From Escherichia phage ECO340P1, in the sequence record OP172791: DNA of 64,000 nucleotides; one strand, given 5' to 3'. The position numbers and the translations under genes are program-made. The notes below the pieces were generated by a model. It saw nothing but the letters and a program-made list of their open reading frames with translations, did no database searches and was not told where the DNA came from. Below are positions 61,961 through 62,443 of the stretch, piece by piece. Position 1 is the stretch's first letter; every line of letters starts with the position of its first letter.

Positions 61961-61992
61961 TGCACACCTCCATTCTTGTTAAGATGTTCCGT

Positions 61993-62021
61993 ACTGTACT
62001 TCATACTGATCTATAGATCAA
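61993..62021 (-). promoter_or_regulatory. candidate promoter (TTGATC-N17-TACAGT) overlapping GTAC repeats and a GATCTATAGATC palindrome
   Basis: Minus-strand -35 at 62016-62021, -10 at 61993-61998, upstream of the 61960 gene. Confidence 0.4.
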
Positions 62022-62370
62022 GTATTATTTATAATAATTTATTATTTTATTTTTTAATTGATAGAAGTTGATCTGTACGTACCAGTTCTGATACACTGTA
62101 CCTGTTTGTTAGATCTAATAATTATTTATTATTAATATTTAATAATTATTAATCTAGTACAGAGTACAGTACTTGAGTACAGAGTACTACATCAACAACC
62201 TAAAACCTTAACTCGCTGCGCTCGTTAATAGATTTCTAGGGTAGCATACTTCGAACACAAAAGTCAAGAGTCTTATTAAAAATTATTTTCTGTGTGCAAA
62301 AAGCCTTGCTTAAACAGGTAGCAATAGTATAGCCTATAACATAAGCTTCATAAGAGGCTCGTAGAGCAAG

Positions 62371-62399
62371 TTTACTTACTAGGTAAGGTGATTTATCAT
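62371..62399 (+). promoter_or_regulatory. candidate promoter (TTTACT-N17-TATCAT) for the rightward gene block
   Basis: -35-like at 62371-62376 and -10 TATCAT at 62394-62399, upstream of the AGGAGG RBS and ATG at 62444. Confidence 0.35.
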
Positions 62400-62443
62400 C
62401 TTATATATAAAAAGTGCGTCAGAGACGCATTTAGGAGGCTAGA

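Follow-up and report, generated by a model that had tools for sequence, protein, structure and literature searches.

A predicted divergent early control region with a clade-specific, GTAC-rich palindrome in Escherichia phage ECO340P1

In Escherichia phage ECO340P1 (sequence record OP172791), of which a stretch of 64,000 nucleotides (the window) was analysed here, a gap of 483 bp at 61961-62443 separates a leftward block of small genes, opening with an ATG at 61960, from a rightward block that opens with an ATG at 62444. The window comes from a Phapecoctavirus (phAPEC8-like) myophage, and the 2.5 kb around the gap are 99% identical to ECO340P2, Mt1B1_P17 and ESCO13 and equally to ~60 further Phapecoctavirus genomes of roughly 150 kb each; whole-genome figures given below were obtained from 536P1 (OZ035728.1), a complete genome of 149,471 bp that is 99% identical to the window. 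The initial annotation, made from the letters alone, had described the gap as an AT-rich divergent control region with GTAC-containing iterons, and had proposed either operator sites for a phage regulator or a replication origin. Both the divergent arrangement and the AT richness (73% in 61961-62200 vs 61% across the window) were borne out, and the GC skew switches sign at this junction. A hidden small gene could be ruled out, as the gap holds no credible open reading frame (ORF) and just ORFs of 23-47 amino acids of AT-rich junk. We give about an even chance to the reading that a phAPEC8-like myophage has its divergent early control region in this gap, where it is read by the sigma-70 RNA polymerase of the host. 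The features on which this reading and its competitors draw are collected in Table 1.

Table 1. Features in and around the divergent gap (window coordinates; promoters are predictions).
Feature	Position	Strand	Details
Terminase and structural module	left of the gap	minus	
tRNA cluster	59060-60982	minus	at least 10 genes; left of the gap
Three small genes	61229-61960	minus	left of the gap
GTACTGTAC	61991-61999		
P_Lp, proximal leftward promoter	61993-62021	minus	-35 TTGATC (62021 to 62016), 17-nt spacer, -10 TACAGT (61998 to 61993)
GATCTATAGATC palindrome	62008-62019		12 bp
AT tract 1	62022-62066		~95% AT (62020-62062); abuts the P_Lp -35 on its upstream side; resembles an UP element or DNA that melts easily
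Imperfect palindrome	62067-62196		130 bp; centre 62133/62134; 51 potential pairs
CTGTACGTACC	62073-62083		
CACTGTACC	62094-62102		
TTTGTTAGATCT	62105-62116		window version of the CTGTTAGATC(T) motif, which other genera (phi92, Tr1) also have in the syntenic gap
AT tract 2	62116-62153		palindrome apex; 100% AT; arms 62116-62133 and 62134-62151, 16/18 complementary, no spacer
GTAC block of the right arm	62156-62187		five GTACs, including AGTACAGAGTAC twice
AGTACAGAGTAC direct repeat	62156-62167 and 62176-62187		8 bp apart, 20-bp period
Leader box CGAGCGCAGCGAG	62208-62228 (box 62224 to 62212)	minus	flanked by TTAAC/GTTAA; ~+8 to +20 of the P_Ld transcript
P_Ld, distal leftward promoter	62238-62267	minus	-35 TTGACT (62267 to 62262), 18-nt spacer, TGc + TACCCT extended -10 (62243 to 62238)
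P_R1, weaker rightward candidate	62306-62333	plus	TTGCTT-16-TATAGC; read from sequence, below the scan threshold
P_R2, main rightward promoter	62371-62399	plus	TTTACT-17-TATCAT; start near 62406; listed by the consensus scan
5'-untranslated region (5'-UTR) hairpin	62414-62430	plus	GTGCGTC-AGA-GACGCAT; just ahead of Shine-Dalgarno AGGAGG (62433-62438) of the first rightward gene
Small genes	right of the gap	rightward	

Two tandem leftward promoters of the sigma-70 type, P_Lp and P_Ld, and one rightward promoter, P_R2, are predicted in the gap, each with hexamers near TTGACA and TATAAT at a spacing of 16-18 nt. When five lineages were compared (the clade of the window, its sister clade phiWec, phi92, FKP3 and Tr1), promoter hexamers, spacing and AT-rich upstream tracts were found at equivalent positions, while the DNA between them could not be aligned; it is from this conservation, which supports the divergent promoter region of the initial annotation, that we infer promoter activity. 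The predicted start of P_Lp lies near 61986, ~25 nt ahead of the start codon, with a Shine-Dalgarno sequence and the ATG following downstream, and its counterparts read TTGACT-18-TAGAGT in phiWec, TTGACT-17-TAGAGT in phi92, TTGACC-17-TACACT in FKP3 and TTGACC-17-TAGTAT in Tr1, with 84-94% AT in the 50 nt upstream in all five lineages. P_Lp holds the GATCTATAGATC palindrome (-35 and spacer) as well as GTACTGTAC, which contains the -10. The claim that this 12-bp palindrome overlaps a leftward promoter was thus upheld, its right half being the -35 of the position-conserved P_Lp. As a special site of its own the palindrome was rejected, since perfect 12-bp palindromes in the window are at chance level (17 vs 19.2 +/- 3.5 in shuffles) and this one is broken in 3 of 12 close relatives, in which its -35 half is invariant.

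The distal promoter P_Ld has a predicted start near 62231, so that its transcript would cross both the palindrome of 130 bp and the AT tracts, and its -10 fits sigma-70 at TAnnnT only. Together with the box in its leader it forms an element present in three copies per Phapecoctavirus genome, each facing co-oriented genes, and also found in Justusliebigvirus, FKP3 and Tr1; the family consensus is TTGACW-N17/18-TGnTACCCTA followed by a CGAGCG(C/A/AT)AGCGAG box, and the other two copies lie at ~42.1 kb and ~74.7 kb in reverse-complemented 536P1, outside the window. This promoter-plus-box element could represent a distinct promoter class or a leader signal. Apart from its centre, which varies between C, A and AT, the box is invariant in 13 distinct copies from four lineages, and it may possibly act as a GNA-loop hairpin or as a protein site. 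Covariation support for a stem around the box was partial and inconsistent across these 13 copies, and no structure is claimed. In leader antitermination signals such as lambda nut and rrn boxB-boxA, a variable small hairpin is likewise followed by a strictly conserved box, right after the promoters of long units and in several copies per genome; unlike those signals, the CGAGCG(N)AGCGAG box bears no likeness to boxA, and no N- or Q-like protein was identified.

Motifs of the GATCTAAC type, weighed as a module linked with this promoter family, proved not to be specific, the CTGTTAGATC(T) motif is not specific genome-wide, and the environmental IMG/VR contigs that match the box pattern equal the chance estimate in number and look unrelated. 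A family of such viral contigs (L020-L060) carries inverted pairs ACTCGCTTCGCTCG...GGGGGGGATAGGGTATAG ~110 bp apart and probably has nothing to do with this phage group.

On the rightward side, P_R2 has counterparts in FKP3 (TTGACA-17-TATCAT), Tr1 (TTGACT-17-TACCAT) and phi92 (TTTACT-17-CATATC), of which those in FKP3 and Tr1 have the better -35, and it is unmatched in phiWec. Its spacer holds AGGTAAGGTGATT at 62380-62393, conserved in phiWec and phi92 although spacers normally vary freely. The weaker candidate P_R1 is shared within the genus only; in phiWec, TTGTGT-16-TATAGT at this place precedes an extra gene of 70 amino acids. The 5'-UTR hairpin ahead of the first rightward gene folds better as RNA than shuffled sequence (z -2.8, 0/200 shuffles), and phi92 and Tr1 have a hairpin at the equivalent spot with a different stem (GCTC/GAGC). 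An intrinsic terminator, with a GC-rich stem and a U-run, was not found in a scan of 61961-62400, and the sole terminator-like match is the minus-strand reading of the hairpin at 62415-62429.

In an otherwise fairly ordinary control region, what stands out is the content of GTAC, a word that this phage avoids. The window has 62 GTACs vs 181 +/- 12 in dinucleotide-preserving shuffles, the lowest figure among the 16 palindromic tetramers, and in the complete genome none of the 256 tetramers is more depleted than GTAC (observed/expected ratio, O/E, 0.29), with CCGG, GGCC and CTAG next in order. Ten of the 62 lie in 61991-62187, the maximum elsewhere being 3 per 200 bp, and in none of 20,000 random placements were ten reached; among the 137 sites of the full genome this is the sole cluster of at least 4 per 200 bp. 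Non-ORF DNA elsewhere has 5 GTACs in ~9.7 kb (0.5 per kb), which makes the density in the gap ~40 times higher. The GTAC motifs of the initial annotation are therefore present and clustered far beyond chance, with the qualification that the sites are not independent, as they are common to both arms of a duplication. All motifs on its list exist, and the span given for AGTACAGAGTAC was exact; the other coordinates were 1-5 nt off, with GATCTATAGATC, for example, placed at 62011-62022 instead of 62008-62019. The 12-mer direct repeat also proved real and unusual, as a 12-mer is repeated within 100 nt at only 4 loci in the 64 kb. The perfect repeat occurs only in this phage and one relative, the first copy being AGTACGGAGTAC in most others. 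Other exact short direct repeats in the window are AAAATTTCCCTGAA, twice, 30 nt apart (6399-6444), and CCTTGTGGACCT, three times (at 23793, 23811 and 23976; region 23793-23987).

Most of this layout can be traced to the imperfect palindrome of 130 bp, which carries 8 of the 10 GTACs, of the CTGTAC type on the left and of the GTACAG type on the right: three CTGTACs on the left (61994, 62073 and 62096, the latter two in the left arm) are mirrored by three GTACAGs in the right arm. The reverse complement of the right arm (62134-62196) aligns with the left arm (62067-62133) at a score of 28.5 vs 0.3 +/- 3.6 for shuffles, and between the left arm and the sister clade the alignment is collinear and needs no gaps. 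Because the arms are homologous and the left one is collinear with the sister clade, the left arm is taken as ancestral and the right arm is, by sequence comparison, a derived inverted copy of the ancestral leader segment and its AT tract. By the same kind of comparison, a further tandem duplication of 20 nt in the new arm produced the two copies of AGTACAGAGTAC. The mirror arrangement of CTGTAC and GTACAG and the 8 of 10 GTACs therefore follow from inverted plus tandem duplication, and the inverted duplication was found only in the phAPEC8-like clade. As single-stranded DNA (ssDNA), 62060-62205 folds into one long imperfect hairpin (-22 vs -9.4 +/- 2.3 kcal/mol, z -5.5, 0/200 shuffles), and the leftward leader RNA (62240 to 61961, minus strand) also folds better than shuffles (z -3.6). 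In the syntenic DNA, phi92, Tr1 and phiWec lack such a fold (z about 0), and FKP3 has a small one (z -1.6).

An alignment of 12 clade members was used to assess constraint. It shows seven substitutions in the palindrome, two of which destroy GTAC cores (62098 in anhysbys, 62171 in phAPEC8); with GTAC cores making up 31% of palindrome positions and 29% of changes, nothing indicates their special protection. In dw-ec a 13-nt deletion removes two GTAC sites. All variants still fold, at -16 to -22 kcal/mol, and compensatory pair changes were not found among these close relatives, which show too little variation. Deletions of 33-68 bp in the AT-rich and palindromic part of the gap in nieznany (NC_052659.1) and EP57 (OR544956.1) are probably assembly breaks and not biology.

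These data bear on the idea that the cluster is a functionless by-product, in which template switching (the inverted copy) and slippage (the tandem one) duplicated DNA that happened to be rich in GTAC, and selection on single sites has been too weak to purge it yet. The homology of the arms with an ancestral left arm is in line with it, as are the neutral-looking substitutions among the 12 relatives, in which GTACs were lost and never gained, the failure of the variable part of the gap to align between clades, and the persistence of 127 other GTACs in the genome, which shows that avoidance is incomplete. However, before copying, the left arm already had three GTACs and P_Lp two, all within 110 bp and far above 0.5 per kb, and the whole clade keeps the foldable palindrome. 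We judge this explanation unlikely; were the locus merely a promoter region with a neutral duplication, it would be ordinary.

An operator array, with a phage regulator binding AGTACAG-type GTAC sites at divergent early promoters and with genome-wide scarcity of GTAC preventing titration, appears distinctly improbable to us. Of the ten GTACs, the pair in GTACTGTAC alone overlaps a core promoter element, and the remaining eight fall within the P_Ld leader, at 50-170 bp upstream of P_Lp. In favour of this reading, that pair lies on the -10 of P_Lp, the 12-mers are two helical turns apart, the gap holds 4 of the 8 genome copies of AGTACAG and 6 of the 19 of CTGTAC/GTACAG, and the first leftward genes encode small Cys-rich proteins of unassigned function. 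Against this, a lack of conservation in related phages, which the initial annotation had itself named as telling against operators or iterons, is what was found: the GTAC cluster is present in the phAPEC8-like clade (at least 93% identity) and is missing from the same gap of the sister clade (phiWec179, phiWec181, phiWec190 and PsgM04F) and of three Stephanstirmvirinae that are further removed (phi92, Klebsiella phage FKP3 and Citrobacter phage Tr1), even though the palindrome-bearing clade and its sister share 82-87% identity in their flanking leftward proteins. Within the clade the cores mutate as often as neighbouring bases, and sites are lost in phAPEC8, anhysbys and dw-ec. Most sites are accounted for by the two duplications. 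Moreover, GTAC is depleted in nearly all flanking contexts (most strongly as AGTACA, O/E 0.10 genome-wide), a pattern in keeping with restriction avoidance and not with an operator of greater length being avoided. Among the eight neighbouring proteins no known domain and no DNA-binding domain was detected, Pfam and PHROGs assign them no function, and no regulator gene is recognisable nearby; a clade-specific regulator gene among them was also considered and rejected, as the neighbours are shared between the clades.

The reading of the gap as a divergent early control region requires no GTAC-reading protein. P_Ld and P_Lp in tandem would drive the three small leftward genes and the tRNA cluster, with the 45-bp AT tract ahead of P_Lp acting like an UP element, and P_R2, perhaps together with P_R1, would drive the rightward small early genes through the 5'-UTR hairpin. 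The palindrome, the product of a young duplication in this clade that copied an ancestral leader segment in inverted orientation and of a short tandem duplication in the new arm, occupies the leader stretch that separates the two leftward promoters. Any effect, we infer, would most likely concern leftward expression: folded into a long hairpin when transcribed from P_Ld, it could give processing or attenuation, and it would place additional DNA that melts easily ahead of P_Lp. Strong sigma-70 promoters arranged in tandem and equipped with AT-rich UP elements are known from E. coli rrn P1-P2 and from the early clusters of T7 (A1-A3) and T5. Here, too, two co-directional promoters with consensus-like -35s lie ~245 bp apart, with an AT tract upstream of the -35 and a tRNA cluster that they would drive. 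Different from those systems are the unusual -10 of the distal promoter, an unvarying TGcTACCCT, the conserved box downstream of it and the palindrome of 130 bp between the two promoters, which are themselves predictions.

Several points weigh against this reading. It leaves unexplained why the most avoided tetramer persists at ~40 times the density of other non-coding DNA, and why the genome has its least stable DNA in these two AT tracts. The palindrome has no U-tract and is thus no classic terminator. The -10 of P_Ld, TACCCT, is a poor match to sigma-70 yet never varies, a hint that an additional factor may take part. The literature searched yielded no transcriptome of this phage group, and the authors of the rV5 paper detected no promoters at the corresponding junction (PMC3606486). 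More generally, the literature on origins, promoters and termini of this phage group holds nothing on this locus, and the widespread coliphages to which it belongs (phAPEC8, phi92 and relatives), which are candidates for therapy, have no experimentally mapped promoters, origin or regulatory sites. Three promoter predictions conserved across genera, a three-copy promoter-plus-box element and a defined origin candidate are the outcome of this analysis.

The origin candidate rests on the physical properties of the AT tracts. AT tract 2 is the least stable and AT tract 1 the second least stable duplex of 40 bp in the 149-kb genome, the two tracts also take the first two ranks at 60 bp, and 62009-62158 is its least stable 150-bp window, by ~11 kcal/mol. 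Promoter-plus-unwinding-element origins are known from T7 (the primary origin with phi1.1A/B and an AT-rich region) and T4 (oriF and oriG, a middle promoter with a downstream unwinding element). By analogy, transcription from the conserved and strong P_Ld would run into the most easily melted DNA of the genome, crossing AT tract 2 and then tract 1, and an R-loop or opened duplex would let the T7-gp4-like primase-helicase and the PolA-type polymerase of the phage begin synthesis; loading from both sides, or the extrusion of a cruciform, would be favoured by the CTGTAC/GTACAG arms that face each other across the AT core in inverted orientation. The present promoters, unlike those of T7 and T4, would be read by host RNA polymerase and are not phage-specific, and the AT tract also occupies the UP-element place of the next promoter. 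There is, in addition, a resemblance, and only that, to viral origins built as palindromes, in which an AT core is enclosed by short inverted repeats, such as the GAGGC pentamers of simian virus 40 (SV40) and oriS of herpes simplex virus (HSV), in that inverted words of 5-6 bp flank an AT-only centre. Unlike there, the arms are imperfect and clade-specific, and an initiator of the superfamily 3 (SF3) or UL9 type was neither sought nor found.

We regard such an origin as the main competitor of the promoter reading, possible but rather unlikely. Besides the extreme instability of the AT tracts and the conserved promoter upstream of them, it is favoured by the short inverted repeats around the AT core, the direct repeats with a period of 20 bp (two turns), the divergent junction with its GC-skew turn, and a genome that encodes the gp4-like primase/helicase and PolA-type polymerase (see also PMC3606486); ICP1, whose polymerase is homologous to that of rV5, can fire from one internal origin (PMC7145576). 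However, in all lineages AT tract 1 holds a fixed place immediately ahead of the P_Lp -35, where an UP element is expected, and the palindrome and AT tract 2 are clade-specific. All four turns of the GC skew in the whole genome, a check for an origin that the initial annotation had suggested in cumulative form, coincide with transcription switches, as also noted for rV5 (PMC3606486). An AT-rich element adjacent to repeats, as in iteron-type origins (lambda ori, P1 oriR, theta plasmids), is present, and the iterons themselves are not: in place of at least three phased direct repeats of ~17-22 bp there are two 12-mers 20 bp apart, imperfect in most relatives, and the spacings of the other GTAC words are irregular (5, 4, 19, 59, 7, 5, 8 and 7 bp). 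Host-factor signals in the gap were likewise rejected, with one DnaA box vs 1.2 expected, no consensus for integration host factor (IHF) or Fis, and oriC-like 13-mers no more frequent than chance would give. Nor can an initiator gene be recognised among the eight neighbouring proteins, and in the assemblies of some relatives parts of the region are missing, perhaps through errors of assembly. In the GenBank records of nepoznato (1793-1847) and anhysbys (417-471), a 55-bp 'repeat_region' is annotated over AT tract 1 or 2, on which the source preprint is silent.

The avoidance of GTAC calls for an explanation of its own. Samples of 30-50 kb from the sister clade and from distant lineages are not depleted (O/E 0.72-0.78), and because these lineages have neither the depletion nor the cluster, GTAC avoidance and GTAC pile-up are both limited to the phAPEC8-like clade. 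Avoidance of 4-mer palindromes, that is, of restriction sites, is known from unmodified phage genomes. In agreement with it, the four most depleted tetramers here are all of this kind, and the sister clade has a counterpart in phiWec190 (LC739539.1, 44400-74400), with 0 CTAG in 30 kb vs 43 expected and a normal GTAC content. Restriction avoidance thus fits the depletion of GTAC, and phages of this group are reported to be unusually sensitive to restriction-modification systems (BASEL study, PMC8594841). Unlike plain restriction-site avoidance, which does not predict it, the most avoided word is ~40-fold concentrated in one non-coding gap. Clade-specific 4-mer avoidance, of GTAC in one clade and CTAG in its sister, serves as a clean natural example of restriction-driven genome shaping, to which the local pile-up is the exception; its tolerance at such a density is the residual puzzle. 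Loss of GTAC by methylation and deamination was rejected, as there is no excess of GTAT/ATAC relative to a sister genus.

One way to resolve the puzzle would be a single cause for both observations, namely a GTAC-reading nickase, initiator or modification enzyme of phage or host that acts at the palindrome, with GTAC avoided everywhere else for that reason. We consider this a long shot. If true, the palindrome would be the replication start of the clade or a programmed nick or cruciform site, stray GTACs would be harmful, and a restriction-like word of 4 bp would define a type of origin. In another part of the genome lies a 'putative endonuclease', which was considered as the GTAC enzyme; it has CapR and GIY-YIG-like domains only and does not bear on the question. 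For GATC, a cluster of Dam sites was rejected, as the gap has 4 vs 2 expected, which is not significant, and the genome is rich in GATC. Three of the four sites (62008, 62070 and 62112) are nonetheless conserved in position in the sister clade, to some extent also in phi92 and Tr1, amid diverged sequence; one of them falls in the P_Lp spacer. These sites might be a Dam-sensitive feature.

A genome end, terminal repeat or packaging site has next to no chance of explaining the gap. The direct terminal repeats of the subfamily, ~330-340 bp long (328 bp in Schickermooser, PMC6563267; 342 bp in BME3, PMC12210895; see also PMC12695924), are near the size of the gap, and the record of nieznany starts inside this locus. 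However, the record starts of Schickermooser and BME3 map to one place ~52 kb away, outside the window, and the start of nieznany falls within the first leftward gene and is therefore an arbitrary opening. By far the strongest ssDNA fold of the 149-kb genome, at ~55,976 in reverse-complemented 536P1 (-46 kcal/mol per 150 nt) and also outside the window, adjoins the mapped terminal-repeat ends of related phages. A miniature inverted-repeat transposable element (MITE) or host-derived repeat was ruled out, as 62060-62205 has no match in 5,426 E. coli genomes; in the phage collection, 61700-62800 matched this genus only, apart from one partial match to a flanking gene.

A search of Rfam 15 returned nothing in the gap at E<=1 and, in 58000-64000, only tRNA matches and weak chance matches. 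Among the weak ones, a RyhB-model match at 58919-58973, between the tRNA cluster and the upstream small genes, is probably due to chance (29 bits vs a threshold of 55, E 0.02). Within the tRNA cluster, two extra tRNA-like matches that ARAGORN did not report were seen at 60201-60285 and 60510-60596, one to tRNA at 39 bits and one to the tRNA-Sec model at 37 bits (under its threshold), and the annotation of this cluster in relatives includes additional tRNA-Tyr and tRNA-Ser genes.

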